The notes: generated from the letters alone by a model not told the origin. 64,000 nucleotides of DNA from Sphingomonadaceae bacterium (GCA_947451145.1 CANFXW010000005.1:66230-130229), one strand, 5' to 3'; numbered from the stretch's first letter, positions 15,613 to 45,987 are shown. Translations and numbers: made by a program.

Positions 15613-15732
15613 GAGGTCAGAGATCGATCCGTAAATTTACTTGCCCAGTCAGGCGGATGCCGGAATTTAACTTCAAATCTGTTTGATCTATTTTGGAGAC
15701 AAATTTTAACGGCGGCGTGGTAAGGATTCAAC

Positions 15733-16497: not shown

Positions 16498-16519
16498 GCA
16501 GCGTCCAACTGCCGTTTTT
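16497..16519 (+). terminator. Putative rho-independent terminator after the NYN gene
   Basis: GGCAG-cgtccaa-CTGCC stem-loop followed by GTTTTT, starting at the NYN stop codon. Lies between convergent genes. Confidence 0.45.
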
Positions 16520-22989: not shown

Positions 22990-23020
22990 GTAAGAATCAT
23001 GCTCCCTCTGGCGGCCACCT

Positions 23021-25897
23021 CTACACAACCGACCAACGGATGGTGAACAGAGTTTCGCACCGGGTGCGCTGAGCCATGCGCTTTTGCAGCGCATCGATCA
23101 TGCTGTCACGGCGCTCGGCAATTTCGTCTTCAACGTCAAAGATTTCCTGTCGCTGCTTGCGTTGTTTGCGCTCCAACTCCTGCAACTTCTTCTGGGCTTC
23201 GTGTTCTTCTTCAACGGTGGCAGCATTGCGGGCATTGCGGCGCATTGCCTTGATCTGTTCCTTGGTATCCTTGAGCGCGCGTTCGGCTGCGAAAATCTTG
23301 TCCTCAGCCCACTGCTCCAGCTTTTCCCGCGCCTGCGCAAAATGCTTGCCGCTGGTTTCGGCCGCATGGTTGAGCGTTGCCTTTTCCAGACGCTCTGCAC
23401 CCGCCTGGAGCCGCGCAGCGATGCCATCGGGCACCGTGATCGGGCGTGCCACCGTCGCGCCGATTGAGAACATCTTCTCGCAGACTTCAGTGTCAAGCGA
23501 ACGCCCATCATCGTTCATGCCAGACAGAAGCAAATGCTCTTCATCTTCGAATGCTGAGATGGTCAGGCGGCGCAGGGTCAGCCACCCGTTCTGCCCGCGC
23601 ATTTCCTCCATCACGGCATTGCGAACCGGGTGCCCGCTGATATCAAAATGCAGCTCGGCGGTGGGTGTTGGTAGCGCCTTCGCCCCGTCCAGCACATGCT
23701 CACCCAAAGGATGGGACAGGCGGTAGAGGAAGCTGCCAAAGGCGTTTGCCTCAAGCCCGTCTTCACGCAGTTTGGAAATGAGATGATATCGCCCGCGGGA
23801 AATATCGGGTGCCGGGGGCTGGTGCAGATCAAAGGTCAGGCTGGCCGGGTCAAACTCCGCCGCTGTGTCCAGCATGTGGCGTGTCACGTCCCAGAATTTG
23901 CTGCTGATCCGGTCGAGCTGCGCCCTGGTCTCATCGAGGCGCAGTTTCAGCCGCGCGTGAACATCCTCGTCGAAATGCTCCAACAGCGTGGCGCGGGTCT
24001 CGTCCATTCGCGAGGCGATCTGGTCCTCAAGCTCTGCTTGCAGCGCGTCGAAAGCGGATTGGATCTGCTCCTCTGTCCGGCACTTTTCGTAGATATCCAG
24101 AATACGGCGTTCGAAGTCGACGCCGGATTCGATGGCGCCGAGCACTTCATCAGAAGCGCCGAACACGCCGTCGAACAGCTTGAACTTGTCGCGCAGCAGC
24201 TCATGCACCCGCATGTCTACCGCGTTCCGCTCGTTGAGGAAGTTGATGACGATCACGTCATGCGTCTGGCCATAGCGATGGCAGCGACCGATACGCTGCT
24301 CGATCCGTTGCGGGTTCCAGGGCAGATCATAGTTGATCACCATCGAGCAGAACTGCAGGTTGACGCCCTCAGCAGCAGCCTCGGTCGCGATCATGATATC
24401 GGCGTGATCGCGAAAATGGTCGATAAGCGCGCTCCGCATGTCGATGGCCCGTGATCCGGTGGATTTGCCGCTGTCTCCATTTTCCGCGATCCATCGCTCC
24501 AGGATCGCCTTGTTTTCTTCGCCAGCGTTGGTCCCGCTAAAGCTAACGATTTTGCCACGATGACCGTTTTCTTCGAGGAATTGTTTGAGATAATCTTGGG
24601 TCCGCCGGGATTCCGTGAAGATCAACGCCTTTCGCTTCGCGCCCATTTCGGCCTGCTTCGCGAAGCCTATTTCCAGCGCCTGCTGAAGCGCGAAGGTCTT
24701 GCTATCGGTCCGGATCGCCTTGGCTCGCTCGATCAGCGCAGCGATTTCCTCGGTCTCCTTGCGCAGTTTGACAGGCTGAATGACAAGCGCATCTTCGTCA
24801 GGATCGCTCTCTGCCTCCCATTCCTCCAGCAACTCGGGTTCGAATTCCTCTTCTTCAAGCAGAGCTTCAAGAAGGTCATTCCCGACCTGACCTTCGCTCT
24901 TGCGGAGATCCTCTAGCCGCGACCTCATTGTGGCAAGCGTGCCAGCGATCGCGACCGACGACGAAGCCAGCAGCTTCCGCATGACCAGAACCGTGAGGTG
25001 CCGTTGGCGATCAGGCACCGAATACGTTCCTTCTTCCTCAAGGAACTTCGTCACCAAATCATAGAGCTCTTGCTCGGCATCGCTGGGATAAAACGGTTGG
25101 GTCAGAGCATGCCGTGCCGTGTAGCGGACGTATTCCAGCACTTGGCGGCGCAGCGTTCGTTTGCAGAACTCGGTCAGGCGGCCGCGCAGTTCCGCCAAGC
25201 TACCGCCAGCGTTCATGTATTTCGCCCGGAAGGCATATTGATCGCCGAAGAGATCCTCGTCGATCAAGGTCGACAGACCATAGAGCTCAAGAAGGCTGTT
25301 CTGCAGCGGGGTAGCAGTGAGCAGAAGCTTCTTCCGGCCTTCCGTTGCCCATCTGATCGACTGGCCCAGGCGATTGCTTTGCCGGTAGGCGTTGCGAAGC
25401 TTGTGCGCTTCGTCAATCACCACCAGGTCCCAATCGATTGCCCGCACCTCATCCTGCAATCGGGCCGCGTAGTGATACGACGTGATCAGCACCGCCCTTT
25501 GCTCAAGCGGCCAGGCATGTCCCTCGCGGCGCAACTCTCTGTAGGTTTTTGCATCCAGAACGAATGCCGGCAGGTTGAATTTTTCCTGAAGCTCGTTGGC
25601 CCACTGCTGACGAATGGCTGCGGGACAAATTATGATCAGCCGACGCTTCCGCTCGGCCCACTTTTGGCAGAGGACAATCCCAGCCTCAATCGTCTTGCCG
25701 AGGCCAACCTCATCGGCAAGTATGACACCTTGCGACAATGGTGACTGTAGTGCGAATGTCGCCGCCTCGATTTGATGCGGGTTAAGATCTACTGAAGCGT
25801 CGAACAACGACATCGAAAGATTATCTTCAGCACCAGACGGAGATTGCCGCGTAATCTCATGGGCAAATAATTGAACATGATAGTCGGTAAGCTTCAT
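23021..25897 (-). CDS. SNF2-family helicase (RapA/DrmD-like) with coiled-coil C-terminal region
   Basis: 958 aa. LADEVGLGKTIEAG, VVIDEAHKLRN, LLLTATPLQNSL, and helicase-C YDLPWNPQRIEQRIGRCHRYGQ. First gene of a three-gene minus-strand operon. Confidence 0.85.
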   Translation of the reverse strand: MKLTDYHVQLFAHEITRQSPSGAEDNLSMSLFDASVDLNPHQIEAATFALQSPLSQGVILADEVGLGKTIEAGIVLCQKWAERKRRLIIICPAAIRQQWANELQEKFNLPAFVLDAKTYRELRREGHAWPLEQRAVLITSYHYAARLQDEVRAIDWDLVVIDEAHKLRNAYRQSNRLGQSIRWATEGRKKLLLTATPLQNSLLELYGLSTLIDEDLFGDQYAFRAKYMNAGGSLAELRGRLTEFCKRTLRRQVLEYVRYTARHALTQPFYPSDAEQELYDLVTKFLEEEGTYSVPDRQRHLTVLVMRKLLASSSVAIAGTLATMRSRLEDLRKSEGQVGNDLLEALLEEEEFEPELLEEWEAESDPDEDALVIQPVKLRKETEEIAALIERAKAIRTDSKTFALQQALEIGFAKQAEMGAKRKALIFTESRRTQDYLKQFLEENGHRGKIVSFSGTNAGEENKAILERWIAENGDSGKSTGSRAIDMRSALIDHFRDHADIMIATEAAAEGVNLQFCSMVINYDLPWNPQRIEQRIGRCHRYGQTHDVIVINFLNERNAVDMRVHELLRDKFKLFDGVFGASDEVLGAIESGVDFERRILDIYEKCRTEEQIQSAFDALQAELEDQIASRMDETRATLLEHFDEDVHARLKLRLDETRAQLDRISSKFWDVTRHMLDTAAEFDPASLTFDLHQPPAPDISRGRYHLISKLREDGLEANAFGSFLYRLSHPLGEHVLDGAKALPTPTAELHFDISGHPVRNAVMEEMRGQNGWLTLRRLTISAFEDEEHLLLSGMNDDGRSLDTEVCEKMFSIGATVARPITVPDGIAARLQAGAERLEKATLNHAAETSGKHFAQAREKLEQWAEDKIFAAERALKDTKEQIKAMRRNARNAATVEEEHEAQKKLQELERKQRKQRQEIFDVEDEIAERRDSMIDALQKRMAQRTRCETLFTIRWSVV

Positions 25898-30504: not shown

Positions 30505-30981
30505 ATGTCAGCGCAATACATCTACGACACCGCCCCCTTGGGCAGCCTCATCCACTATTCGAATGGCGCCCCGCGCCCGCCCGAGCGTTTCCGCCGCAAA
30601 CTTGCCGCTTGGGACAACGACAATGGCACCGGTCGGCTCGTTGAACGCTACCCCGGCCAGGTTACCGATAACTACCGTTCGCCGGCGCATTTCATGCTCC
30701 ATCTGGCAACCTACGGCAGTCAGGGCGTCATCGTCATGACCGTGCGCCGCGCCTACAGCGTCGAGAGCCCGCTCAATTTCGAGATCATCGATACGCCAAA
30801 GCCTGGTCAAGTCCGCGTCTTGACCACGTTTCGGGGCAAGGACGAATTGCGCCACCTCGCAGCCGACATGGAATCGGCAGAAGCATGGATGCGCGACAAT
30901 CTCTATTCCGGGATGCGCGCCGAGATTGTGACCGACGCTGATCTGGCCGTTCTGCCCTCTGAACTCAGGAGGGCGGCATGA
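30505..30981 (+). CDS. Hypothetical protein (ICE backbone)
   Basis: 158 aa. AAGGAGA Shine-Dalgarno 8 nt upstream. Its stop overlaps the next start (ATGA). Confidence 0.5.
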   Translation: MSAQYIYDTAPLGSLIHYSNGAPRPPERFRRKLAAWDNDNGTGRLVERYPGQVTDNYRSPAHFMLHLATYGSQGVIVMTVRRAYSVESPLNFEIIDTPKPGQVRVLTTFRGKDELRHLAADMESAEAWMRDNLYSGMRAEIVTDADLAVLPSELRRAA

Positions 30982-31778
30982 ACGACATCATCGTCGAACA
31001 TGGCACGACCAGCGACGGCCTTATGGCCGCACGGGTCGATGGGCTCGCCTATATCGCCATTCCGCTCAAGGAAGGCTTCTCGATCGTGTCCGGCTGGAAG
31101 CTCAACCGGCCGATTGGCGAATGGTCCCGGTCAGATGTTTATTGTGCCGAAGGCGCCGTGGCTGATGAAGTCTCCTTCCGCGCCTATATTGCCGACATCG
31201 CGCTACATGTCCGCCAGCGCAACGCGCTCGGCCGCGTCGATACGATCCTGCGCGTTTCCACGCCTTGGGGTATGTCTCAATCGGCGACCATCTACGCTGA
31301 GGGGATCGTCTTTCATTCCACTGCTGGTCATGGCGGCTTCAAGCTCGACCGGGCACGCAATGCGGGGATGGATCCCGTGTTGCGACTATCTGGCGGCTGG
31401 TATGAAGAAGACGCCGAATGGGCGCTCGTCGCCGCAGGTTACCCGGACCTGTTCACCTACCGCGAACAGGCTACGGCAGACAGGTCGTTGCGAGATTGGT
31501 ATCCTGATGCTTGGGAGGCCCTCCATGGCCGCGAGTTGTCAGCGGCAGAATCTTTCACCCGCGACCGCCAGCAGTTTGCCCGCCGCCACGCAAAGGATTG
31601 GGTGGTCATTTCTGCCGCTCGATCATCCGATCACTCTGGCATGGTTGAGGCGCTGGCCACCGTCGGAGGGGATCGGAATAGCCAAGAAACGCGACGATTT
31701 CTGGTGCGGGTCGGAGAATATGCAGCCGGACGCCATGGATTTGTCATTGTGCCAGCCGTCCACCAAGCCATTTCGTAA
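30978..31778 (+). CDS. Hypothetical protein, possibly DUF7007-like (ICE backbone)
   Basis: 266 aa. STPWGMSQSATIYAEGIVFHSTAGHGGFKLD...GWYEEDAEWALV. Preferred over the overlapping Arg/Ser/Pro-rich frame 31000..31839. Confidence 0.5.
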   Translation: MNDIIVEHGTTSDGLMAARVDGLAYIAIPLKEGFSIVSGWKLNRPIGEWSRSDVYCAEGAVADEVSFRAYIADIALHVRQRNALGRVDTILRVSTPWGMSQSATIYAEGIVFHSTAGHGGFKLDRARNAGMDPVLRLSGGWYEEDAEWALVAAGYPDLFTYREQATADRSLRDWYPDAWEALHGRELSAAESFTRDRQQFARRHAKDWVVISAARSSDHSGMVEALATVGGDRNSQETRRFLVRVGEYAAGRHGFVIVPAVHQAIS

Positions 31779-32024
31779 GCCTCGTTTGTGCTTGAAGTGC
31801 TGTGAATTGCTTGCGGGAAAATCTGGGTTCCAAAACTAGTCGGGGCCCGTTTGCTCGACTGCGCAAATTTCGTCAGAAGCATTTAGCTCGACCACGCTCC
31901 CGGCCCTGCCTCATTTGGAATGTCAGACGGGCGATCACTTGCTGGTTGGCCCCGCCACTATCACAGGAAAAGCGCGCGCAGTTTTCGACAAAATAAGTTG
32001 CATAACGCGAAAAATCATATATCG

Positions 32025-32045
32025 ATTCCTTCATAACGAAGGAAT
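32025..32045 (+). promoter_or_regulatory. Perfect 8-bp inverted repeat overlapping the Shine-Dalgarno of the first cargo-C gene (operator or SD-sequestering hairpin)
   Basis: ATTCCTTC-ataac-GAAGGAAT read directly. The right arm contains AAGGA 9 nt before ATG 32053. CATAACG is repeated at 32001-32007 and 32032-32038. AT-rich leader. Confidence 0.4.
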
Positions 32046-32052
32046 TTAGCTT

Positions 32053-32754
32053 ATGATCGACATCCGCAAGACGCTGGTTGAAGCATTGCCAAAGAATCTC
32101 CTCCTCGACCTAGAGGATCGGTTGCGCGCAGCTGCGTTGCACGCGTTCGATGTTGTCCAGCAGGAGTTGCCGCTCAATCGGAAGCGCAGCCGTGAAGCCG
32201 AAGGGCAGATTCGCTTCCGTCTTCAGGAGCAGGCCTATGAGGAGGTTGTGCGCGAACATGGCGGGGATCTGCTTGTCGATGGCGTGATGGTGGGAACCGA
32301 TCTCAAGGTATTCCAGCCCTTTGCGCGTTTCGCCGGTTCGAAAGCTGGTATTATCCTGGGCTTCGCGGCCATGCCCGAGCCGCGCAAGATCCCGCCGAAG
32401 AATCAATCGCGTGCTGCCGGTGTGACATTGAACGTCAGTCTGCAGCCAAGCCTGCTGGACGATGGCAAGAGCCCCCGGTCCTCAGACATCTTTGCGCTTT
32501 TCCTGACGGCTCGTGACCGTGAGCGCGCCGGACGAATTGAAGAAATTGCGATTGGCGTGATCGGGTCCGACTATAAGGACTTCATCTTCTATGAGTCGCT
32601 CGAGGCTTTTCTCGGTGGCTATGCCGAAGTGCCTGCCACGCCTGACCATGGCGGGAAGGGCGGGGCTGCAGTCAAGCTACGTGCGACCCGCAAGCCGTTT
32701 GTGCCGCCAGAGGTGCGTCCCGACACTGAGGTTGGCGACCGCATCGCAGAATAA
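32053..32754 (+). CDS. Hypothetical protein (233 aa), first gene of cargo block C
   Basis: ORF with a good SD. No motif recognised. Sits directly upstream of the XRE-ImmA/IrrE gene. Confidence 0.5.
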   Translation: MIDIRKTLVEALPKNLLLDLEDRLRAAALHAFDVVQQELPLNRKRSREAEGQIRFRLQEQAYEEVVREHGGDLLVDGVMVGTDLKVFQPFARFAGSKAGIILGFAAMPEPRKIPPKNQSRAAGVTLNVSLQPSLLDDGKSPRSSDIFALFLTARDRERAGRIEEIAIGVIGSDYKDFIFYESLEAFLGGYAEVPATPDHGGKGGAAVKLRATRKPFVPPEVRPDTEVGDRIAE

Positions 32755-32828
32755 ATCGGGCGTAGAAGTTGCACTTTAGTGTGTTCGCTCCGCGCCTTCC
32801 CGGCGCGGAGCTTTAAGGATTCTGGCAT

Positions 32829-34043
32829 ATGCGCATTGGCACTCCAGGCTTCGTCCCAGCGCGACTTACCGAAGCGCGTGAGGCGCGGCGAATTGCGACC
32901 AAATCGGCGCTGGCTCGACGGATCGGCGTCAGCCCAACATCTGTCTCGCGTTGGGAAGATGAAGGGTCTGAACAGACGCCCGACTATCCGACGCTCGTTC
33001 GTCTTGCGGGTGAACTGCAGGTTCGCCCTGAATTTTTCCTCCGTCCCACATTCCAAAGCGAGCGCCCAACCTTTTTGCGCTCGCTGGCGAGCACGCTGCA
33101 GCGCGATCTGAATTTCCAAAAGTCACAAATGCATTGGCTTCAGGAAGCAAGTTATGTTGTCAGCCATTACGTCGATTTGCCGGATGTTGATATTCCCGAT
33201 GTGCTCGAAGGGGCGAGCTACACTCAGCTTCGCGACGACGACATCGAGGCGATCGCTTTGCGGCTACGCAATCATTGGAACATGGGCGAAGGGCCATGCG
33301 GCGACATGGTTGCACTCATGGAGCGTGTCGGAATCGTCGTGGCCGCGATTCCGATGAATACGACCAAGCTGGATGGTCTGTGCAGCTGGTCGCCCGTCGA
33401 TGGGCGTCCCCATGTGCTGCTCGCGACAGACAAAATGTCGTTTCCCCGCCGCCAGATGGATGCTGCCCATGAGTTGGCCCATGCGGTTCTGCATCAAGCG
33501 GTCCCAGAAGAAGAGTTCCAGGACAATCTTCGCATGATTGAGCAGCAGGCGTTTCGCCTTGGCAGCGCATTTCTCATGCCCTCTTCCACTTACCCTCATG
33601 AAGTTCGGCATGCATCGCTTGCCATGCTGACCAGCCTCAAGGAGCGGTGGCGGGTTTCGATTAAAGCGCAGATTAAACGGCTTGCCGATCTGGACGTGAT
33701 CCCTGAGGATCACGCGCGTCAACTCTATAAGTTGTATTCGGCGAAAGGCTGGTCGAGAGGCGAGCCGCTTGATCAGCACTGGCCCGTGCCGGCACCAAAG
33801 GCTCTGCACGATAGTCTCAATCTGATCGTCGATAATGCTGTACGCGGCAAGGCTGATCTGATGGCTACCGAGTTCATTATTTCGGAATCCGACGTTGAGC
33901 TTCTTTGCGGTTTGCCTTGCGGCTGGTTCGAACGCGATGGTGCCGAAGTGGTCTCATTGAAGATCCGAGAAAACATGATACCGCCAAGGATCGACGGAGC
34001 GGCTGAGATCATACCCTTTCCAGATCGACGTTCGCCTCGCTGA
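32829..34043 (+). CDS. XRE-family HTH fused to ImmA/IrrE (COG2856) zinc metallopeptidase domain
   Basis: 404 aa. N-terminal HTH LTEAREARRIATKSALARRIGVSPTSVSRWE. HExxH motif AAHELAHAVLH at 33468-33482. Confidence 0.8.
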   Translation: MRIGTPGFVPARLTEAREARRIATKSALARRIGVSPTSVSRWEDEGSEQTPDYPTLVRLAGELQVRPEFFLRPTFQSERPTFLRSLASTLQRDLNFQKSQMHWLQEASYVVSHYVDLPDVDIPDVLEGASYTQLRDDDIEAIALRLRNHWNMGEGPCGDMVALMERVGIVVAAIPMNTTKLDGLCSWSPVDGRPHVLLATDKMSFPRRQMDAAHELAHAVLHQAVPEEEFQDNLRMIEQQAFRLGSAFLMPSSTYPHEVRHASLAMLTSLKERWRVSIKAQIKRLADLDVIPEDHARQLYKLYSAKGWSRGEPLDQHWPVPAPKALHDSLNLIVDNAVRGKADLMATEFIISESDVELLCGLPCGWFERDGAEVVSLKIRENMIPPRIDGAAEIIPFPDRRSPR

Positions 34044-34271
34044 GGCGATAATAGGTTAGCAGACGGGGCGGCTAATAGGCGGTGGCTTGTTCTGGTACCA
34101 GCCATTCTGTTTTTTCCGGACAGCTTATCGCCAATCAATTGAAGCCTTTTACCTAGCTCACCAGTTGCATGGGCTTCTTGTTGGCGTTGCCATGCAGCTC
34201 GGAAGGAGTTGAAGAACCATTCCCGCAAAAGCGCGATCGTTTCATTGGTGAAGTTATAACCTATATTCAGT

Positions 34272-35186
34272 GTGAACACAGTTGAAGTGAAGGGCCTGCC
34301 AGTGAGTCTTACTATGCCAACAAAATGGCGTTTCGGATCGCCGGGCGAACTGAACCAGCAGACCGTAAATGCATTCAACTCGCTCATCCACACAATCGCC
34401 ACCCAAGCCGATTCCACATGGGAAATCCTCGAGCTCTTCAAGGCGAAGTTCAACGGCGGTGCCAGCTGGAGCTCCAGCGAAAGCTGGGCGGTGGGTGACC
34501 TCCACAATGCCATGAACGGCGCGGCTGACAATGCCGCGACCTTCATCGCCGCCTTTTGGGACGGCTGCGAACAGGTCCATCGCGAGCATTCCACCATCGG
34601 CCTGCCAGACGTCGACATCATCAACCAGATTCTGTTCGAGCATGACGTCCCCTACGAGGTGCGGCCGCCCGAGCTCTTACCCCGCAATCCTCAGACCCCT
34701 ATCCCGGTCCAGACACCGCAGCGATCCATTGGCGAGCAGGCCGTTGCATTGGTCCACGCATCGCTCGATCAAGCCGACCGTCTGCTCCTCGAGCAACGCC
34801 CGCGGCCTGCGGTCCAAGAGATTCTCTGGCTGCTTGAGACGGTCGCCACCGCCTTCCAGGGCCTAGATACCGGGACAGGCACCATCGAGGGCAAATACTT
34901 TAACGAGATCATTCGCAATCTGCGCAACCACCACCGCGGCGGCGCGCTTGCCGAGGCCTTAGGTTGGATGACCAAGATGCACGGCTTTCTCTCATCACCC
35001 ACGGGTGGGGGCGTGCGTCACGGCACCCAAATGGCGGTCGACGTCTCACCGACGCTCAAGGAGGCGCATCTCTACTGCAACCTCACCCGCAGCTATATCA
35101 ACTATCTGCTCGCCGAGGCGGCGGACGCTTTGCCCGTTCAGCCCGTGAGCAGCTCGCCGTTCGGCGCGCCTGCCTGGAGGAGGTGA
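34272..35186 (+). CDS. Hypothetical protein with candidate C-terminal HEPN (Abi_C/AbiJ-like) domain
   Basis: 304 aa from GTG 34272 (ATG alternative at 34314). R-x4-H motif IIRNLRNHH at 34914-34931, preceded by a helical AVQEILWLLETVATAF segment. A downstream GGGVRHG is also present. Confidence 0.45.
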   Translation: MNTVEVKGLPVSLTMPTKWRFGSPGELNQQTVNAFNSLIHTIATQADSTWEILELFKAKFNGGASWSSSESWAVGDLHNAMNGAADNAATFIAAFWDGCEQVHREHSTIGLPDVDIINQILFEHDVPYEVRPPELLPRNPQTPIPVQTPQRSIGEQAVALVHASLDQADRLLLEQRPRPAVQEILWLLETVATAFQGLDTGTGTIEGKYFNEIIRNLRNHHRGGALAEALGWMTKMHGFLSSPTGGGVRHGTQMAVDVSPTLKEAHLYCNLTRSYINYLLAEAADALPVQPVSSSPFGAPAWRR

Positions 35187-35229
35187 CCTTGCATGTTGCC
35201 CTGCATGGCCTCTTCGCAGGGGCTGGGAT

Positions 35230-36369
35230 GTGATTTCGCTTGATGACTATGCGTCGGCGGTCCGGCGATATGCTGAGGCAGTCACAGGGCATGGCGATCA
35301 GCTCGAGCTGTACATCGACGGCCTTGTCGGCGATCCCGATGCTGAGAATTGCGTCTCGCTGCGAGCGATGGTCAGCACGCAGGAGGAAATGACCTTACGC
35401 CGGGGCTATCTTGAGATCGGCTATTTCCAACGAGCCGCGGCGGATCGCCGGCTTGCTTGGTGGCTCTTCTATTTCGACATCGCACACGAATTCGAAAACC
35501 TGTCGCTCGAGCGAAGTTGCGAGCTTTACTCTAAGGTTCATCCCCTCTTTCAGGGCACCCCATCCCTGTTTGCGAAGATCCGGCGCACGATCCCGGCAAA
35601 TGGCAAAAGCTTGGGGGTGCCCGATTTGGAGCTGATCGATGAGAAAGCAATCAAGCCCATCGAGGAAAGCGAGCTCGTTGCACTCAACCCTGGCTATGGC
35701 CAACTCGTCGCTTCCCTCCACCGAACGATCCCGGCTTTGGCGCGCCAGCTTTATCCGGACGCGCCGCGCTTCGTACGTCTTGATCCGCATTTTTGGTCCG
35801 CAAACCAGCCGTTCATGCGCCTAGAAGAGGTCGCCATCGCACCGGCCGATCCGACCTGGATGGCACAGCTCTCGCTGCCTCCGCGCACGGACACGTTCGC
35901 AGCTTACCTTCTCGAAGATTGCGATCCTAAAGCCAACATGGCGCAGTATCGTGATTATCACGTTCGTGGCATCCGCAAGCTGGAGGTGGTCGCGACCCGG
36001 CGCCGCGAGGACTACCTCTCGATGATGATCGAAGAGCTACCCCGCGACGACGACCCCAATGGACTGATGGTAGGGCGCTGCATTCATCTCGACACCCATG
36101 CGCGCTCCGGTACATCGAAGGGCGACGCGCGTCTTGCCCATCTCGATCTTGCCATCAACGTTTATCGTGGCGTCGACCGCGCGGCGCGCATAGCCAACAC
36201 GCTTCAGCACGGCAAAGCACAAGATGCGACATACCGGACGCACCTCTATCGCATCGAGGATGTCCCCTTTCCGGCGCTGTTTGTATTTGCCGCGCTCTTC
36301 CTGAAATCAAGGACCCTTCTAGGCGAATGGCTTGACGATCTGAACCTGCCGCGACCGCCAATGGTCTGA
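35230..36369 (+). CDS. Hypothetical protein (379 aa)
   Basis: ORF from GTG 35230 (start uncertain). Balanced composition. No catalytic or NTP-binding motif recognised. Confidence 0.45.
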   Translation: MISLDDYASAVRRYAEAVTGHGDQLELYIDGLVGDPDAENCVSLRAMVSTQEEMTLRRGYLEIGYFQRAAADRRLAWWLFYFDIAHEFENLSLERSCELYSKVHPLFQGTPSLFAKIRRTIPANGKSLGVPDLELIDEKAIKPIEESELVALNPGYGQLVASLHRTIPALARQLYPDAPRFVRLDPHFWSANQPFMRLEEVAIAPADPTWMAQLSLPPRTDTFAAYLLEDCDPKANMAQYRDYHVRGIRKLEVVATRRREDYLSMMIEELPRDDDPNGLMVGRCIHLDTHARSGTSKGDARLAHLDLAINVYRGVDRAARIANTLQHGKAQDATYRTHLYRIEDVPFPALFVFAALFLKSRTLLGEWLDDLNLPRPPMV

Positions 36370-36448
36370 TCATCAGCGAAAAAGTTTAGTGTGATTAAGA
36401 ACAATGCCGCCTGTTTGAGAGCTGGTTTGAGAAGGAGATCGACGGAAC

Positions 36449-37426
36449 ATGAGAGAAAGCCTGCGAAATCGTGTTCGTTTCCTAGACCAGAAGGTCATTG
36501 ACGCAAATGATCTTGTGCCGAATCAGCCAGGGGGTATTCAAAATCTGATTTACAGAACCCAGGATCCTGCACTGAAGTGGATCGAGAACGCCACTTCGCG
36601 CATCGGCGACTGGCGCGCGTCCGAGCGAAGCGTTTTTATGCGTTGGGCGATTACAATTAACGCGCTGCATGTAGCACGAGACCGTTACCGAGATTCGCCA
36701 GACATACTCCTTACCATCGACACCCTCCGCACTGCGAACGGACGGACTGAGCGTGTGCACATGGCAGGCTGGAGTGGTGAGGAGGCGGCGGGTAACCACG
36801 AGGCCACCATTCCAATGATGGCCGCCTACGCCGTTCAGGACATGTATGGAATCGTTGAGGAAATCGTCCTCGAGCTCTACGAAGTCTTCGTGCGCGGTAA
36901 TCCGCTTTTCCTCATGAAAGGGGACGATTACAAGCCACTACGCGCCGCGTTCCGTGCGATGGGCGATGGCGAAGCAGAGCGTGTTGCGTTCGAGGCGATG
37001 TGGGAGGATCGAATTGCGGGTTGGCGCCGTAATCGGACCTTCGATGGTCTTCACAAGGTCTTCGCAAGCTTCTGGGCCTCTGCTGGGCTAAATCGTCCCA
37101 GCAGCTATAGCCTGACGGACGTCGCCGATTGGCAGCGTGTCATGGAGACCATTGGAGAGGTCCGGCATCTCGTCACTCATGGCGAAGACAAGGTTTCGAA
37201 GCGTCTCGGTGACCTCTGCGCCGCCCAACCGAACCTTGGAATGACATTCAAAGAGGGGGAACCGCTAGAAGTGAAGCTGATGGATCTCTGGATCGTCGAG
37301 CATTTCATCGATCAGCTGCTGAACGCGATCAACATCAGTCTGCTCGAGAAGGCTGTTGGACCGCTGCCCCCGCCCGGCGGCGCTAAGCCCGATCAGGCCG
37401 GAACACCTGCGGCGACAGAGATGTAA
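36449..37426 (+). CDS. HEPN-domain protein (candidate RNase)
   Basis: 325 aa. GAAGGAGA SD upstream. R-x4-H motif METIGEVRHLVTHGEDKV (R239..H244 = 37163-37180) in a helical C-terminal half. Its stop TAA is immediately followed by the next ATG. Confidence 0.55.
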   Translation: MRESLRNRVRFLDQKVIDANDLVPNQPGGIQNLIYRTQDPALKWIENATSRIGDWRASERSVFMRWAITINALHVARDRYRDSPDILLTIDTLRTANGRTERVHMAGWSGEEAAGNHEATIPMMAAYAVQDMYGIVEEIVLELYEVFVRGNPLFLMKGDDYKPLRAAFRAMGDGEAERVAFEAMWEDRIAGWRRNRTFDGLHKVFASFWASAGLNRPSSYSLTDVADWQRVMETIGEVRHLVTHGEDKVSKRLGDLCAAQPNLGMTFKEGEPLEVKLMDLWIVEHFIDQLLNAINISLLEKAVGPLPPPGGAKPDQAGTPAATEM

Positions 37427-38875
37427 ATGGCGGTGACTGACCACAGCTTCGACCTGCTCGAGCGGCGACATGGCTGGAAAGTCGAAGAAGTCCTCGTCGT
37501 CACGCCCTACGTCGAGAAGGAATTCTTCGAACGTCTAGCCAAGGGGCTTCATCCTCAGCGTTTGAGCGTCATTATCGACGACGGTTGTCGCCTCGACGAC
37601 ATCGACATGGTCACTAAGGCCGTGTCCAAGGCAGGTAGCAAGACCGTTGCTGGATTGAGGTGCGTCCTCGGATCAGCGCCGGGACTGATGCATCTTAAGC
37701 TCTTCTACATCGTGTGGCGGACCCCCGGAAAGCGCACAGCGCGCACGCTGATTTTCGGCTCCGCCAACGCGACCAGACAGGGATTCGGCGGATCAGTAAA
37801 CGCCGAACTCATTGCCAGTTGCAGCCTTACCATGGGGCGGCACGCCGACGTCATAAGCTGGTGCAATGCCGCCATCGCCGCCGCGCGGTCGACGGAACAC
37901 ATAAAGCTCGCCGGCGCGAGGGATGTGGAGCTTGGCAAGGGCATACGGCTCAGACTTCCCGCTCTGACCATTGGACGCAAAAAATCGGCGCTCGCGAGCT
38001 TCGATCTGTGGGTTCAGCGTGGATGGCTGCTTTCGGAATATCGGCCCGACCCCGGCTTCCTGCGCGTTCCGATTCATCTCAGCAAGGCGCTTAGTCAGAC
38101 CGAACAGGAGCGTATCGCAGCAACCAGCGGCTTCGCCGTGCCAGCCAAGAAGCGCCTGACCTTTTCCTACGCATTGCCGGAGGGCCAGGTCGGCAACGGC
38201 ACGGACGATGATGACGCAGACGAAAGCGACGAGGGAGGTAATTGGCGACGGAAATTTTTCGTCTGGACCCAACTCGGCGAGTGGTGCTCTGATGCCTGTC
38301 ACCGCGCCGAACATCACCACTTCCGACGAAAGGGCTACCAGCAACGCGAAGAAAGGCTGCGCTGTCTCGAGACGCTGCGGTTGCCGTCTGTCCGACAAGA
38401 AGAGCGCGATCGCTTCCTTGCTTCGCTTACTAAGCTCTGGAACGACTTCGGTGAAGAGGCGAGCGAACTCCTTCGCGGCGGCGATGCGCTGGACGAGCAA
38501 TACTACGCGCAGCTGTTCGACCAGCGTGTGGAGCGCGATCTCGCGCTCGTCGTCGACGGGGAGTTCCAGGATCGCTATCTCACTGGCTACGAATTGAGCC
38601 AAGTCCCCCGCTTTAGGCCCGACGTCCGGGGTTGGCGCGATTTCCTCGAAAGTCTTGCGCGGCAAATCTGCTTAGACGGCGCCCGCAAGCAGAGCCAGTC
38701 GCGACTTCCTCGCGCCATTCTAGAGGCTTTGAAGCTGACGGGCTTAGACGACGCAGGCTTTGATGATCCTGAAATGCTCCTCGAAAAGCTGAAACTTGTT
38801 TTCGAGAAGGGGGAGTGCGGCGACGCTATTATGGCACAGGCAGCGACGACCATCAGCCGGTATCACCTAGACTGA
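37427..38875 (+). CDS. PLD-superfamily (single divergent HKD motif) nuclease-like protein with ~340-aa unknown C-terminal region
   Basis: 482 aa. LVVTPYVE...GLMHLKLFYIVW...LIFGSANATRQGF (H89/K91...G111-S-x-N114 = 37691-37768). The canonical Asp of HxK(x)4D is absent. Acidic stretch DDDDADESDEGG. Confidence 0.55.
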   Translation: MAVTDHSFDLLERRHGWKVEEVLVVTPYVEKEFFERLAKGLHPQRLSVIIDDGCRLDDIDMVTKAVSKAGSKTVAGLRCVLGSAPGLMHLKLFYIVWRTPGKRTARTLIFGSANATRQGFGGSVNAELIASCSLTMGRHADVISWCNAAIAAARSTEHIKLAGARDVELGKGIRLRLPALTIGRKKSALASFDLWVQRGWLLSEYRPDPGFLRVPIHLSKALSQTEQERIAATSGFAVPAKKRLTFSYALPEGQVGNGTDDDDADESDEGGNWRRKFFVWTQLGEWCSDACHRAEHHHFRRKGYQQREERLRCLETLRLPSVRQEERDRFLASLTKLWNDFGEEASELLRGGDALDEQYYAQLFDQRVERDLALVVDGEFQDRYLTGYELSQVPRFRPDVRGWRDFLESLARQICLDGARKQSQSRLPRAILEALKLTGLDDAGFDDPEMLLEKLKLVFEKGECGDAIMAQAATTISRYHLD

Positions 38876-39049
38876 GCCTACACAGAAGTTATTCATTCGT
38901 GAACCTCACACTGGGGCTCGAAAGCGCGCGATGCGCTTGCGAGCGCTGAGTTTGGAGGCAGAGCCTTGCCGGGAGCGGGCGAACCGCCCGGGTTTAGAGA
39001 GAGTGTCCGGGCGTGATCCGCCCTTTCTGCTCTCCCGGAGATCCCACCA

Positions 39050-42000
39050 ATGGCCCATACTCTAACGGACGCAGCGCTTGGCGCTGCGCCGCGCGCATCG
39101 AATTGCTCATTTGATGATCGTTCGCGTGCGCTGCTGACCGCAGCAACCTCGCTCATAGCCCTGCTCGAAACCGGGCAATGTGTTGAATCCGCCTGTTTGC
39201 GGGATGCAATGACGACAGCCTTTGGCGGCACCGATGCTGAAGGCGCATGGGATTGGAAGAGCGCCTACGATGCCTGTGAGGTTGCACAGATCCTGTTTCT
39301 GCGCCGCTTTGGCCCGGCAATCTTGTCTCGCAGTGGCTCCAGATCTCGCTCCCTTGCGCTGATTGAGCGGGTATCGGCTCTCATACCGACCCACACCCGG
39401 CGCTCTGAAACCAGCCAGGCCTTGCAACAATATTCGACGCCAGCGGGTCTATCGTTCGTGGCCGTTGTCGCTGCTTCGATTGGCGTTGGCGAAACTGTGC
39501 TCGAACCTTCTGCTGGCACAGGCATGTTGGCGATTCAGGCCGAACTGGCCGGTGCACAGCTCGTGCTGAATGAACTCGCTGAAGGCCGGGCAGCGCTGCT
39601 GTCGCACTTGTTCTCGGGCGTGGCTGTCAGCAGACATGACGCCGCGTCGATTGATGATCGTTTGCCCATTTCGGCACGCCCGAGCGTCATCCTGATGAAC
39701 CCGCCATTTTCGGCCGTCGCGCATGTTGAGCGGACGATGAAGGACGCCGCGCTTCGCCACCTCGCTTCCGCGCTGGCCCGGCTCGAGAATGGGGGCCGGC
39801 TGGTGGTCATTACCGGCGCTGGCTGTGCTCCTGATGCTCCAGCATGGCGCGATGCTTTCATCCGGTTGCAGGGGACCGGACGTGTGGTCTTCACCGCCGC
39901 CATCGACGGCAAGGTCTATCGCAAGCACGGCACGACGATCGACACGCGATTGACGGTGATCGACAAGTTGCCCGCCTCCGATCCCACGACTTTCGTTCCG
40001 AGTGCAGGGACTGCTTCTGATACCGCGACCTTGCTCAAATGGGTCGAAGCGCAGGTGCCGCCGCGCGGACCGATCGCCCCAATGCCCGGTGCAGGACTGC
40101 ATTGCGCTTCTTCGCCGTCGCCCGCGAGCCGCGCGGTTGCTCGGACTGCGCCGATCAATCCCATGGTCGATGCCGATGCGCCTGAACTCACCTATTCGAC
40201 TGCTGTCTGGGCTCCGCCTGAGGGGCAACTCGGGGACAGCATCTACGAACGATATGGACTTCAATCGGTCGTCATTCCCGGCGCATTGCCACACCCGACG
40301 CCGCTGGTTCAATCCGCGTCGATGGCCTCGGTCGCGCCGCCGAAACCCGCCTATTTCCCGCACTTGCCCGAGCACTTGTTGGCTAATGGCGTGTTGTCCG
40401 ACGCGCAGCTGGAATCCGTAATCTACGCTGGCGAGGCACATTCCGGGCATCTGGCAGGGTCCTGGACCGTTGACGAGACATGGGATCTCGTCTCGGCGGC
40501 GGCTGAAGTAAGCGATGCTGCCGTCCGCTTTCGCCGCGGCTGGTTTCTGGGTGACGGCACGGGCGCAGGCAAAGGGCGTCAGGTCGCAGGCATCATTCTC
40601 GACAACTGGCTCAAAGGCCGCCGCCGTTCGCTCTGGGTTTCGGTATCGGACCGCCTGCTTGAGGATGCTCAGCGCGACTGGTCGGCTTTGGGGCAGGAAC
40701 GACTGCTGGTGACACCCTTGTCGCGCTTCCGTCAGGGCACGCCCATCAAGCTGGCGGAAGGCATCTTGTTCACGACCTATGCGACCCTGCGTTCGCAGGA
40801 GCGGGGCGGTAAAGCGAGCCGGGTCCAGCAGATCGTCGAATGGCTTGGCCGTGACTTTGACGGTGTCATCTTCTTTGACGAGGCGCACGCCATGGCCAAT
40901 GCCGCAGGCGGCAAGGGCGCGCGCGGCGATGTTTCAGCCTCGCAGCAGGGACGGGCGGGCCTGCGGCTGCAACATGCTCTGCCCAATGCCCGCATCGTCT
41001 ATGTCTCGGCCACCGGTGCCACGACGGTGCAGAACCTCGCCTACGCCCAGCGGCTCGGCCTGTGGGGCGGCGAAGACTTTCCTTTCGCCTCACGCGCCGA
41101 CTTCGTGGCCGCGATTGAGGATGGCGGCGTCGCAGCTATGGAAGTGCTGGCCCGCGATCTGAAGGCGCTCGGCCTCTACGCTGCCCGTTCCTTGTCATTC
41201 GATGGCGTCGAATATGACCTGCTCGAGCACCAGCTGACCCCTGAGCAGGTGCGGATTTACGATTCCTATGCCGGAGCATTTCAGGTCATTCACGCCCATC
41301 TCGATGCAGCGCTCGAAGCATCGGGCGTCACCAGTGCATCCCATGGGACCTTGAACGCACAGGCCCGGTCGGCAGCGCGATCAGCTTTCGAAAGCGCCAA
41401 GCAGCGTTTCTTCAATCACCTGATCACCGCAATGCAGACGCCAAGCACCATTCAGGCGATGCAGCGCGATCTTGAGGCCGGTCACGCCTGTGTCGTGCAG
41501 ATCGTATCGACGGGCGAAGCGTTGCAGGAGCGCCGTCTTGCCGAAATCCCGACCGACGAATGGGATGACGTTTCCGTGGACATCACGCCACGTGAATATG
41601 TGCTCGACTATCTCGCGCACAGTTTTCCGGTGCAGCTCTATGAGCCCTTCACCGACAGCGAGGGCAATCTCGCCTCGCGGCCTGCTTTTGATGCCGACGG
41701 CAATCCCATCCTCAACCGTGAAGCCTGCCGAGCCCGTGATGCCATGCTCGAGCGGCTTGCCGCTTTGCCGCCTGTGCCCGGTGCGCTTGACCAGATTGTC
41801 CAGCATTTCGGGAGCGATGCGGTTGCCGAGGTGACCGGACGTTCCCGTCGCATAGTGCCCCGCGCCAGCAGCGATGGTTCGGTGCGCTTCGCCGTCGAAA
41901 ACCGGCCCGCATCAGCTAATATCGCTGAAACCCATGCGTTCATGGATGACAAGAAGCACATCCTTGTCTTCTCCGAGGCTGGCGGCACGGGGCGATCCTA

Positions 42001-43396
42001 TCATGCCGACCTAGGCGTGAAGAACCAGCGCCGCCGCGTCCACTACCTGCTCGAAGCAGGCTGGAAGGCCGACACCGCCATCCAGGGCTTTGGCCGCACC
42101 AACCGCACGAACCAGAAGCAGCCACCGCTGTTTCGCCCGGTATCGACCGACGTGAAGGCGCAGAAGCGCTTCATCTCGACGATCGCCCGAAGGCTCGACA
42201 GTCTCGGAGCGATCACGCGCGGCCAGCGGCAAACCGGCGGCCAGAACATGTTCAGCGCCAGCGACAATCTGGAATCCTACTATGCCCGCGATGCCCTACG
42301 CCAGCTTTACCAATTGCTGGTGCGCGGCAAGATCGATGGCTGTTCGCTAGGGCAATTCGAAACGGCCACCGGCCTGTCTCTGCTCGACAATGACGGCGGG
42401 CTCAAGGACGAGCTTCCACCCATCACGACCTTCCTCAACCGGATGCTGGCGCTCACCATTTCCATGCAGAACATCCTGTTCGAGGCCTTCGAGGGTCTGC
42501 TGACGGCCCGGGTCGAAGGCGCAATCGCCAGCGGCACCTATGAAATGGGCCTCGAAACCCTGCGCGCCGAGAGCTTCTCGGTCTCCGACCGCAAGACCAT
42601 CTACACCCATCCCGGCACCGGAGCTGTGACCCACCTCCTGACCATCGAACGCAAAGACCGGATCGAGCCGGTTGTGCTCGAGAGGGCGCTGGCCATGGCG
42701 ATGGATCGCGATGCCGAACTGGTGATCAACACTCGCTCCGGGCGCGCGGCAGTCAAATTGCGCGCGCGCAGTCTGATCGACGATGATGGCGGCATTCACC
42801 CACGCATCCGCCTCGTCCGGCCTTTGGAGGCGACCAATATCCTCGCGGAGGCGTTTGCGACCAGTCATTGGGAACCGGTGGACCGTGAGCGGTTCAGCGA
42901 AGTCTGGCAGGCCGAACTTGCCGACTTGCCGGAGTTCGAAACCTCGACCCTACACATGGTTTCAGGCCTGCTGCTGCCGATCTGGCGGCGGATCCCCAAC
43001 GAATCGACCCGCGTCTACCGCCTGCAAACCGATGCTGGCGAGCGCGTCATCGGCCGCAAGGTTTCGCCCGCTTGGGTCGCCACGGTGATTGAGCAGGACA
43101 CGGCGTCCGTCGTGCCTGCCGATGCTTGGGCGGTGCTGTGCGCCGGAGATGCCAAACTGCATCTGGCCGAAGATCAGACGCTCGCTCGCGTCCGCGCCAT
43201 GAATGACTGGCGGATCGAACTGACCGGCTTCAACGATCTTGGCATCGAGCGATTGAAGGCAATGGGCTTGATCTCCGAGATCGTCTCGTGGAAACTCAAG
43301 CTCTACATACCGACAGGGGCTGTCGGGGTTGATGTGCTCGCCAAGCTGCTGGACCGGTTTCCGATCCAGCGGATCGCGGCACGCAAAGCCGCCTGA
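39050..43396 (+). CDS. Strawberry-notch-family protein: N-terminal N6-adenine methyltransferase-like domain + P-loop/DEAH helicase
   Basis: 1448 aa. SAM motif VLEPSAGTGMLAI and motif IV NPPF at 39698-39709. FLGDGTGAGKGRQ P-loop and IFFDEAHAM. Typical backbone gene of this ICE type. Confidence 0.8.
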   Translation: MAHTLTDAALGAAPRASNCSFDDRSRALLTAATSLIALLETGQCVESACLRDAMTTAFGGTDAEGAWDWKSAYDACEVAQILFLRRFGPAILSRSGSRSRSLALIERVSALIPTHTRRSETSQALQQYSTPAGLSFVAVVAASIGVGETVLEPSAGTGMLAIQAELAGAQLVLNELAEGRAALLSHLFSGVAVSRHDAASIDDRLPISARPSVILMNPPFSAVAHVERTMKDAALRHLASALARLENGGRLVVITGAGCAPDAPAWRDAFIRLQGTGRVVFTAAIDGKVYRKHGTTIDTRLTVIDKLPASDPTTFVPSAGTASDTATLLKWVEAQVPPRGPIAPMPGAGLHCASSPSPASRAVARTAPINPMVDADAPELTYSTAVWAPPEGQLGDSIYERYGLQSVVIPGALPHPTPLVQSASMASVAPPKPAYFPHLPEHLLANGVLSDAQLESVIYAGEAHSGHLAGSWTVDETWDLVSAAAEVSDAAVRFRRGWFLGDGTGAGKGRQVAGIILDNWLKGRRRSLWVSVSDRLLEDAQRDWSALGQERLLVTPLSRFRQGTPIKLAEGILFTTYATLRSQERGGKASRVQQIVEWLGRDFDGVIFFDEAHAMANAAGGKGARGDVSASQQGRAGLRLQHALPNARIVYVSATGATTVQNLAYAQRLGLWGGEDFPFASRADFVAAIEDGGVAAMEVLARDLKALGLYAARSLSFDGVEYDLLEHQLTPEQVRIYDSYAGAFQVIHAHLDAALEASGVTSASHGTLNAQARSAARSAFESAKQRFFNHLITAMQTPSTIQAMQRDLEAGHACVVQIVSTGEALQERRLAEIPTDEWDDVSVDITPREYVLDYLAHSFPVQLYEPFTDSEGNLASRPAFDADGNPILNREACRARDAMLERLAALPPVPGALDQIVQHFGSDAVAEVTGRSRRIVPRASSDGSVRFAVENRPASANIAETHAFMDDKKHILVFSEAGGTGRSYHADLGVKNQRRRVHYLLEAGWKADTAIQGFGRTNRTNQKQPPLFRPVSTDVKAQKRFISTIARRLDSLGAITRGQRQTGGQNMFSASDNLESYYARDALRQLYQLLVRGKIDGCSLGQFETATGLSLLDNDGGLKDELPPITTFLNRMLALTISMQNILFEAFEGLLTARVEGAIASGTYEMGLETLRAESFSVSDRKTIYTHPGTGAVTHLLTIERKDRIEPVVLERALAMAMDRDAELVINTRSGRAAVKLRARSLIDDDGGIHPRIRLVRPLEATNILAEAFATSHWEPVDRERFSEVWQAELADLPEFETSTLHMVSGLLLPIWRRIPNESTRVYRLQTDAGERVIGRKVSPAWVATVIEQDTASVVPADAWAVLCAGDAKLHLAEDQTLARVRAMNDWRIELTGFNDLGIERLKAMGLISEIVSWKLKLYIPTGAVGVDVLAKLLDRFPIQRIAARKAA

Positions 43397-44451: not shown

Positions 44452-44758
44452 GCGAAGCTGGCCGGTAAGCGGGGGATTTTCCGGGGCAGTGGGGCGCATC
44501 GCCACCTCTCCCGGTCCTTGAAGGTCGCCACGCCCTCGGCCTTCGGGAGGGGGCGACTGCGGCAGCGAACACGGGCACCGCAATGGCTGCGCTGCGGCTA
44601 TTTTCCGCCGGGGCTGCGCCCCTTTGCATCGCGAAACAAAATTGCCTTGCTTCGCCATCCTCCGCTGGCGCTCCGGCCGCGCGTTTCCGCGCGGTGCAGA
44701 CCCGTGCCCGCCGCCGCTGGTCGTCGCCACAAAGGCCGCGAGAGGCGCGGCTCAGGAC

Positions 44759-45706
44759 ATGGAGACCATCATGGCAAGCGCCCCAGATCTTCCCCTTGAA
44801 GACACCACCCCCGAACTCGGCCCAACCGCCTATCTCCTCCAGGAAATGCAGCTTTACGGCTATCGGCCCTTCCAGGACGAACCTGATGGCAGGCCGCTAC
44901 CAGATGCCCGCCTTGCCGGTGGCGCGGTCGCCGACATGTTCGACGGGCTTGTCTCAGCTTTGATCGACACCCGCATTGAACCCGATCTCGAAGACCTGCT
45001 CTGGAACCTCGTCAACATCTTCCACCGCGCCGGCGAGCGGGTCGAACGCGATATCGACGACAATGAACAGGCGCAAAAACGCCTTCAGCGCGAACAGGAT
45101 GGCAGCGAAGTGCGCTCGGTCGAACTTGAGCGCCATATTGCCGAAGGCATCTCGCTCATCGAACGCCGCGACACGATGGAATTCTTCCGTGAAGCCGCTG
45201 CCGATCAATTCCGCATCCACGCCCGCAAGGCCTGGACGCCCCGCACCGGATCCCGAGTCAACCGCAAGGCCATGACCTCAGCCATCATCGACAGCCGCGA
45301 CTTCCTCGACAAGCGTGCCAGAGAAAATGCCCGCGTGCTGCTGCCCGAAGGCACCCGTATCGCCTTCACCGGTGGCCCCGACTGCAACGATCACTCGGCG
45401 ATCTGGGATGTCCTCGACCGGGTACATGGGCGTCATGCCGACATGGTCTTGCTCCACGGCGCCACACCCACTGGTGCCGAACGCGCCGCCGCCTGCTGGG
45501 CCGACACGCGCCGCGTGCCACAAGTCGCCTTCCGGCCTGACTGGAACCGACACAAGAAGGCCGCTCCATTCAAGCGCAACGACCGTATGCTCGAAGCTCT
45601 GCCAGTAGGTCTGGTCGTATTTCCGGGCACCGGCATCCAGGACAATCTGGCTGACAAGGCGCGCAAGATGGGCATTCCGCTCTGGGACTTCCGCGAGAAG
45701 CGATGA
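44759..45706 (+). CDS. DUF2493 (SLOG-like) domain protein
   Basis: C-terminal IAFTGGPDCNDHSAIWDVLDRVHGRHADMVLLHGATPTGAERAAACWA. Start is uncertain: ATG 44759, or ATG 44771 which has GGAGA upstream. The track start 44624 looks over-extended. Confidence 0.6.
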   Translation: METIMASAPDLPLEDTTPELGPTAYLLQEMQLYGYRPFQDEPDGRPLPDARLAGGAVADMFDGLVSALIDTRIEPDLEDLLWNLVNIFHRAGERVERDIDDNEQAQKRLQREQDGSEVRSVELERHIAEGISLIERRDTMEFFREAAADQFRIHARKAWTPRTGSRVNRKAMTSAIIDSRDFLDKRARENARVLLPEGTRIAFTGGPDCNDHSAIWDVLDRVHGRHADMVLLHGATPTGAERAAACWADTRRVPQVAFRPDWNRHKKAAPFKRNDRMLEALPVGLVVFPGTGIQDNLADKARKMGIPLWDFREKR

Positions 45707-45987
45707 GACGGTTAGCTTCGTCCATTCTCACTTAGAATGGCCGGTTTAAGTTTCAGAAAGTGAGGTGGCTCCCCTCACATGTGCGAAGTGCAATGTCGGC
45801 ATACGCCGAACCCTGCCATTCGGAAGTTTGACGCTAGCTGGGCAGTCAGGGGCCCGTCCCAGTGGTTCGATTTAGACTGAAAGCATCCGCAGTTCGCTTT
45901 TCATCTTCGAAAAATTGGCGAGTCGTTTGTGAACCCATCGCGTGTATGGGTGATGTCACAGAAAGACGGCTATGACGGAAGTAACCG

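Follow-up and report, generated by a model that had tools for sequence, protein, structure and literature searches.

We describe here a cargo hotspot in an integrative and conjugative element (ICE) of a Sphingomonadaceae bacterium, carried on a 64,000-nucleotide stretch of DNA (GCA_947451145.1 CANFXW010000005.1:66230-130229) that we refer to as the window. Positions 31779-39049 hold six open reading frames (ORFs), g1 to g6, all on the plus strand, between a gene for a DUF7007 protein and a gene for a strawberry-notch (Sno) helicase. The interval between these two backbone genes is sharply bounded, and its content is lineage-variable and mostly of defence type. In the present ICE, we believe that the slot holds an anti-phage (or anti-invader) islet of composite make-up, in which independent modules form three transcription units, a reading to which we assign a probability of roughly 0.6. 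By their profile matches g1 and g2 are RosmerTA, an already described system, and g3 is most aptly described as a divergent AbiJ-like protein; g4, g5 and g6 are unannotated candidate families.

The limits of the hotspot follow from comparison with related elements. A scan for the DUF7007 protein across 185,579 species genomes returned 79 related ICE or plasmid loci, in 18 of which, all sphingomonad, the protein is 92-95% identical to that of the window. In 11 close relatives (92-95% nucleotide identity), alignment to the window stops at 31747-31774, at the left conserved flank formed by the DUF7007 gene (30978-31778, plus strand; Pfam DUF7007, 9e-48). It resumes at 38951-38960 in the eight relatives whose contigs extend to Sno, at the conserved AGAGCCTTGCCGGGAGCGGGCGAACCGCCCG that lies 90-100 bp upstream of the Sno ATG, and in relatives reaching the Sno side a conserved 31-mer begins at 38960. 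The right flank (39050-43396, plus strand) encodes a methyltransferase and Sno helicase protein of 1448 aa (AAA_34, 1.2e-123; Helicase_C_4, 4.8e-100), and the Sno gene is about 95% identical in the close relatives. The two sets of break points thus define a variable segment of about 31775-38950 (plus strand), without homology to the 11 close relatives. The last ~95 bp of the interval lie outside it and form a conserved Sno leader (38951-39049, plus strand), where homology to the relatives resumes and which is the right edge of the hotspot. A preliminary description of this DNA had proposed a cargo insertion, free of transposases, that separates two genes of the ICE backbone, and had suggested alignment with related elements; the relatives' break points bear out the proposal, and the alignment gives both exact boundaries and alternative, mostly defence-type cargo at the same site.

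That description also held that the two flanking genes are normally neighbours. So they are in three distant relatives (L041, L043 and L044; L numbers are our locus labels), where they lie about 200 bp apart and the slot is empty, but in other relatives they are separated by anything from 0.9 to more than 10 kb. The distance is about 0.9 kb in four (L023, L031, L032 and L035), and in the remaining measurable loci the gap is 2.6, 3.9, 4.5, 6.0, 7.0, 7.8 or 9.2 kb, or exceeds 8-10 kb. The slot between DUF7007 and Sno is therefore usually occupied, and its occupants differ widely. They include an OLD-family nuclease (AAA_15 plus TOPRIM) in L021; a SMODS nucleotidyltransferase with an RNase_T-type exonuclease in L017, L020 and L033; a reverse transcriptase-trypsin fusion, an ABC ATPase and a hydrolase with an ABC-3C CTD9 domain in L028; a NERD-UvrD helicase with a helix-turn-helix (HTH) protein in L022; a WYL/WCX regulator, an RNase_H-SF1 helicase and a DUF6791-ThiF protein in L016; and HATPase, DruA-like and SNF2 proteins in L026. 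Judged by domains, six of the eight distinct alternative cargos annotated are of defence type, the exceptions being a single DUF1643 gene in L023 and a set of metabolic genes (amidohydrolase, CN-hydrolase, MFS) in L029. On two related plasmids, a hypothetical gene (pCHQ1) or DUF4326 and VapBC genes (pMC4) are found upstream of Sno.

The six genes of the window are not backbone. Homologues of g1-g6 were found in none of the 79 related loci (tblastn, 1e-5), so that the same six genes do not recur as an invariant feature of related ICEs. The complete set of six genes, with both flanks, is also present in L103, an independent metagenome contig that is 98.3% identical in nucleotide sequence over 10,273 bp; the arrangement is thus no assembly artefact, and this same ICE is the only place in which the set was found. 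When the region was compared by megablast with 72,556 plasmids, Sno alone was matched. Pfam and other domain searches detected no recombinase, transposase or integrase domain among the six proteins, and terminal or att-like direct or inverted repeats around the block amounted to short, chance-level matches. The ORF calls and domain searches therefore agree with the earlier account of six same-strand genes free of recombinases and insertion sequences (IS). Given sharp, common break points and the lack of any recombinase, IS or repeat, the content of the hotspot would most likely be swapped between lineages by homologous recombination in the conserved flanks.

Within the block, three leaders stand out by base composition, as the preliminary description had noticed: 31779-32052 upstream of g1 (G+C fraction 0.496), 34044-34271 upstream of g3 (0.487) and 36370-36448 upstream of g5 (0.443), all on the plus strand, compared with 0.578 for the whole block and 0.622 and 0.629 for its flanks. 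These separate AT-rich leaders probably mark out three transcription units within the block: g1-g2, g3-g4 and g5-g6. A sigma-70-like match lies at 32030-32057 in the first leader, but such matches are not above chance regionally: scans of the region did no better than shuffled sequence for promoters (2 versus 2.3 expected) or for terminators (8 versus 7.4 expected). An antisense ORF of 283 aa with a TTG start (33773-34624, minus strand) spans the end of g2, the second leader and the start of g3, and is probably a spurious high-GC antisense ORF.

The first unit is the best defined. The protein encoded by g1 (32053-32754, plus strand; 233 aa) matches the PADLOC profile for RmrT, the toxin of RosmerTA (PDLC03942, 7.3e-99), over residues 1-230, and that encoded by g2 (32829-34043, plus strand; 404 aa) matches RmrA, the antitoxin (PDLC03956, 1.4e-205); both profiles are matched over their full length, and g1 ends 74 bp upstream of g2 on the same strand. 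No Pfam family was matched by g1. In g2, HTH_3 (1e-6) and Peptidase_M78 (5.6e-16) are matched in Pfam and a HELAH sequence supplies the HExxH motif, in keeping with the XRE and ImmA/IrrE domains read there earlier. RosmerTA has been shown experimentally to be an anti-phage toxin-antitoxin (TA) system, with a Zn-peptidase antitoxin and diverse toxins (bioRxiv 10.1101/2022.05.11.491447; PMC10440598). The HTH-Zn-peptidase antitoxin RmrA would restrain the toxin RmrT until infection.

The second unit opens with g3 (34272-35186, plus strand; 304 aa), in which an AbiJ-NTD4-like N-terminal domain is followed by a HEPN-like C-terminal bundle. Among 1.84 billion representative proteins, all scanned with HMMER, 445 relatives of about 285 aa were found. 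Among 44 that were aligned, AbiJ_NTD4 is matched by 13 (best 1.8e-7) and Abi_C, the AbiJ-type HEPN domain, by nine (best 0.008). In the AlphaFold model of g3 (predicted local distance difference test, pLDDT, 88.4), an alpha+beta domain at the N terminus precedes a bundle of helices at the C terminus, and the top Foldseek matches in the PDB are HEPN domains, with probabilities up to 0.99 and E-values of only 0.2-3; they include 2q00 (probability 0.99, TMt 0.60), 3o10 (the sacsin HEPN domain), 1wol and 1o3u, as well as the HEPN toxins 8yuf and 8xdj. Residues R249, H250 and G251 are invariant in the family. The RNLRNH sequence at residues 215-220, which is probably what had earlier been taken for a HEPN motif, is not conserved; the HEPN call for g3 would draw instead on its HEPN-like fold and its probable AbiJ family membership. 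A sensing N-terminal domain would here be paired with a HEPN RNase-type C-terminal domain, leading to aborted infection. The preliminary description had counted HEPN twice in the block. We considered duplication as the origin of the two copies and rejected it: profile-profile comparison of the g3 and g5 families detected no relationship.

Its neighbour g4 (35230-36369, plus strand; 379 aa) is an orphan of no recognisable family or fold. It has no match in Pfam, PADLOC, NCBIfam or PHROGs, and its homologues, 118 clusters among 5.8 billion proteins, are all annotated as hypothetical. The structural model is confident (pLDDT 89.4; predicted template-modelling score, pTM, 0.87), and Foldseek searches of the PDB and BFVD gave a best E-value of 0.16 and a template-modelling (TM) score of at most 0.37, so that the modelled fold is apparently new. 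Nine residues are invariant across the family (R257, E268, E269, H286, D288, H304, D306, R336 and H338), and in the model this HxD/HxD/RxH/EE set of His, Asp, Glu and Arg residues falls on predicted beta-strands, which suggests a hydrolase. Clustering of 445 neighbouring ORFs gave no conserved partner for g4. The largest groups among its neighbours are serine recombinases (seven loci) and an E2/JAB-ThiF/DUF6527 operon (five loci), in a mixture of serine and tyrosine recombinases, M78 peptidases, SIR2_2, Mrr and pentapeptide, MmeI, SLFN and Fic genes; homologues of g3-g4 adjoin MmeI, SLFN_AlbA_2, Fic and T5orf172 genes. In the five loci with the operon (L095, L127, L128, L131 and L164), the g4 homologue lies 36 bp downstream of a Multi_ubiq-E2/JAB-ThiF(E1)/DUF6527 operon on ParB-bearing elements, the E2/JAB-ThiF operon being about 1.8 kb upstream of the g4 homologue, and this sub-clade may be linked to a ubiquitin-like conjugation system. 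In L107 (121-2169), the g3 and g4 homologues appear frameshifted, each in two tblastn pieces, which could be decay or sequencing error.

The third unit begins with g5 (36449-37426, plus strand; 325 aa), a putative HEPN RNase with an invariant motif. None of the 43 clusters of g5 homologues is annotated. R239, H244 and G245 are invariant in 37 sequences and form an R-x4-H-G motif, an Rx4H signature in line with the earlier HEPN call, and seven of the 37 family members weakly match HEPN_RiboL-PSP (best 0.0095). Elsewhere g5 homologues occur without g6, beside a C5 methyltransferase on a Qipengyuania ICE and beside a 1050-aa SIR2_2 protein. We take g5 to be a putative HEPN (Rx4H) RNase that, from the juxtaposition of the two reading frames, would be translated next to g6: the ATG of g6 directly abuts the g5 stop.

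The last gene of the block, g6 (37427-38875, plus strand; 482 aa), encodes a PLD/HKD-type putative nuclease with a conserved C-terminal region of about 300 aa. Its homologues fall into 71 clusters, and H89, K91, G111, S112 and N114 are invariant in 47 sequences, giving the HxK...GSxN (HKD) signature; the stretch of g6 matched by PLDc_2 is also matched by the PADLOC ZacB profile (5e-6), and one homologue, P0061, has a precomputed PF13091 match. The PLD call for g6 thus stands on its invariant motif, though its own Pfam score is below the cut-off. We picture g6 as a single-HKD, putative PLD-family nuclease in which the large C-terminal region would serve regulation or sensing. Homologues of g6 adjoin Ssp/Dnd-like clusters, a BrxC/BrxD gene, and AbiEii, Mrr and NYN genes, and only one of the 72,556 plasmids carries g6. 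In L004, an Mrr_cat and pentapeptide-repeat gene pair (11937-14440) adjoins the g6 homologue; the Mrr_cat and pentapeptide families each also occur twice among g4 neighbours, in two g4 loci.

In three loci the gene immediately downstream of the g6 homologue encodes a giant sacsin-like (SACS/DUF3883) ATPase (L003, 11482-15573; L009, 9150-13373; L190, 9718-14472); the ATPases of L003 and L009 are 72% identical to each other, and the association may be recurrent. The window has a SACS-like gene of its own (45988-51447; 1819 aa), the product of which shares only the N-terminal ~380 aa with these proteins, at 22-25% identity. This gene is also variable cargo, since homology to L021 and L023 stops at 45712-45799. 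We set it aside as a partner of g6, as it lies 7 kb downstream in a separate variable slot.

Taken together, the distribution of g3, g4, g5 and g6 shows four autonomous families as the dominant pattern, each found mostly alone elsewhere and often near defence or mobile-element genes. Viral contigs hold five homologues of g3, two of g4, four of g5 and none of g6, and with so few viral homologues the families are not phage-enriched. In the viral loci, g3 is solo in five of five, and g5 is solo in the three of four that have downstream sequence, the fourth (L188) ending at the g5 match. All four proteins gave nothing meaningful in sequence and profile searches of all PDB sequences, and g3-g6 have no match in PHROGs or NCBIfam.

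How these modules relate to one another can be read in several ways. The preliminary description preferred a single integrated immune system of six genes, and it is true that the genes are contiguous on one strand, that the whole block is kept in L103, and that its recognisable domains are all of sensor or effector type: XRE and ImmA/IrrE in g2, the HEPN-like fold of g3, the Rx4H motif of g5 and the PLD motif of g6. The description of the domains largely stands; that of one undescribed system does not. L103 is the same ICE, the modules are found apart elsewhere and never as a set, g1-g2 alone make a complete known system, g3 probably belongs to the AbiJ family, and three AT-rich leaders point to three units, so that we regard a six-gene system as extremely improbable. 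A more serious contender, which we nonetheless consider doubtful, is that g3-g4 and g5-g6 are each a true two-gene system, in which a HEPN component is joined to a second effector or regulator (the orphan-fold g4 or the PLD-type g6); such pairs would be novel HEPN-based systems of the defence or TA type. Each pair lies under one AT-rich leader, with 43 bp between g3 and g4 and none between g5 and g6. The g3-g4 unit (34230-36359) recurs over 2.1 kb at 85% nucleotide identity in a different island, L092, and the pair is also present in L107; g5 stands upstream of g6, with overlapping reading frames, in the different context of L009/L010. At the same time, pairing is limited to close relatives. 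Of the 52 dereplicated g4 loci that extend far enough upstream to tell, just three have g3 ahead of g4 (L092, L107 and the ICE of the window itself), and g4 homologues with at least 73% identity have g3 whereas those with at most 60% do not. In five of its six contexts (L003, L004, L005/6, L007/8 and L011/12) g6 lacks g5, and even close g6 homologues, at 74% and 68% identity, are without it; L009/L010 is the only exception. Homologues of g3 and g5 are solo in viral and chromosomal loci, and g4 has no other conserved partner. These patterns favour the composite islet of independent modules.

A different possibility is that the block serves the ICE itself, through post-segregational killing or addiction (with RosmerTA as a plain TA and the HEPN proteins as toxins), or through anti-defence or establishment functions of the region that holds the ParB-like and Sno genes. 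The surroundings, with a ParB-like gene, a methyltransferase-helicase and a Toprim gene, are typical of plasmid and ICE establishment regions; anti-defence genes are known to abound in the leading regions that conjugative plasmids carry (PMC11541004); and the related plasmid pMC4 has VapBC at the same site. We think such a role highly improbable, however, as the relatives' cargo in the slot is canonical defence (OLD, SMODS, reverse transcriptase, ABC-3C), chromosomal islands with restriction-modification, Ssp/Dnd, SIR2 and AbiE genes, remote from any conjugation genes, harbour homologues of g4, g5 and g6, and relatives with an empty slot (L041, L043 and L044) keep the backbone. Several observations do weigh against the composite defence islet that we prefer. 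As a TA module on an ICE, RosmerTA could serve maintenance of the element, and the pairings of g3 with g4 in L092 and of g5 with g6 among close relatives show that the second and third units can travel jointly. Defence by g3-g6 is inferred from the company that their homologues keep in a small number of loci, and some of these settings are not defence-like: housekeeping genes and recombinases are common next to g4, and one homologue of g6 is surrounded by his and ABC-transporter genes. The family assignments have soft spots as well: g3 itself has no Pfam match and is below detection for AbiJ_NTD4, Abi_C and PADLOC, only some of its relatives match, with weak E-values, and its family does not conserve the canonical Rx4-6H motif; g5 itself has no Pfam match and an empty PDB profile search; and the PLDc_2 match of g6 (6.6e-4, 20.0 bits) is under the Pfam cut-off of 27 bits. 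With these points in the balance, we hold only tentatively, and at well short of even odds, that at least one of g4, g5 and g6 is a new anti-phage effector, g4 being the strongest candidate, for its confident model without a structural relative, and g6 the second.

The wider ICE shows further variable positions. Trb-type secretion genes occupy 6.8-14.4 kb of the window; the Sno gene is followed by a DUF7146-Toprim gene (Pfam), and a tyrosine integrase at 53951-55330 by chromosomal uxaC. Between the Trb genes and the ParB-like gene sits a cargo-like block on the minus strand (16520-25897) that encodes an SNF2 helicase (958 aa), an N6_N4 DNA methylase (1075 aa) and a 1115-aa protein without a Pfam match. 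The gene at 44624-45706, the final member of the conserved backbone ahead of the second variable slot, encodes a protein with a YAcAr (YspA/cpYpsA-related SLOG) domain. In L044, an insertion of about 3.6 kb (13526-17178) splits the Sno gene at about residue 851, and in L017 the Sno match ends at the same residue (about 17810); this site may be an insertion hotspot or mark an intron-like element.

The arrangement of DUF7007, cargo and Sno provides a precise defence slot in a widespread alphaproteobacterial ICE family, one whose content would be exchangeable by recombination. Hundreds of sphingomonad and rhizobial genomes can be mined systematically for whatever these break points enclose, all of it candidate defence cargo, and the present slot supplies three compact candidate families: g4, with its apparently new fold, the HEPN-like g5 and the PLD-like g6. 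It also corrects the first reading of this DNA, as two of the three units hold already described families. If at least one of these families does prove to be a new anti-phage effector, g4 would define a new single-gene system riding on mobile elements and in defence islands, to which the AbiJ-like g3 would be an optional add-on; the second candidate, g6, would be a PLD nuclease to which the g5 HEPN RNase may or may not be coupled, and whose gene repeatedly lies beside those of giant sacsin-like ATPases.

Compared with known systems, the modules range from familiar to distant. The RmrA of the block has the HTH and M78 Zn-peptidase domains of published RosmerTA (bioRxiv 10.1101/2022.05.11.491447; PMC10440598), and nothing structural sets the module apart; its distinction is to ride in an ICE hotspot of an alphaproteobacterium. 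AbiJ proteins have been proposed to combine sensing at the N terminus with a suicide effector, a HEPN RNase (PMC3710099), and g3, some of whose relatives match AbiJ_NTD4 and Abi_C, appears to have that architecture; its family differs in that its invariant motif is R249-H250-G251 and not the canonical Rx4-6H, and in the g4 that comes after g3 in this lineage. The R-x4-H-G motif of g5 and the weak matches of seven of 37 family members recall the RiboL-PSP HEPN proteins, but g5 itself is unmatched and has neither the L-PSP fusion nor the ParB operon (compare PMC3710099). With its HxK...GSxN signature, g6 can be aligned with PLDc_2 and with the PLD segment of ZacB (Azaca), a likeness at the domain level only. 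DrmC of DISARM is a further PLD/HKD-family nuclease used in defence. From such PLD defence nucleases g6 differs in having only one HKD motif, a wider gap between K and GS (20 residues), its family-specific C-terminal region of ~300 aa, and the lack of helicase or other partners.

The slot itself belongs to a familiar class. Defence hotspots on mobile elements have been described for SXT, P2/P4 and E. coli (bioRxiv 10.1101/2020.12.16.423150; PMC9122126; PMC10121019), and like hotspot 5 of the SXT ICE and the P2/P4 and E. coli hotspots, the present one has conserved flanks, sharp bounds and mostly anti-phage content. It differs in its Trb-type ICE, its DUF7007/Sno backbone, its Sphingomonadales hosts and the slot that is used. 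The portion of a sphingomonad ICE preprint available to us notes defence genes and Sno helicases and does not mention DUF7007 (bioRxiv 10.64898/2025.12.11.693706). Thus defence cargo in a mobile-element hotspot, RosmerTA and the AbiJ family are already known; judged against that portion of the preprint, the DUF7007/Sno slot is new, and so are the three unannotated candidate families g4, g5 and g6.

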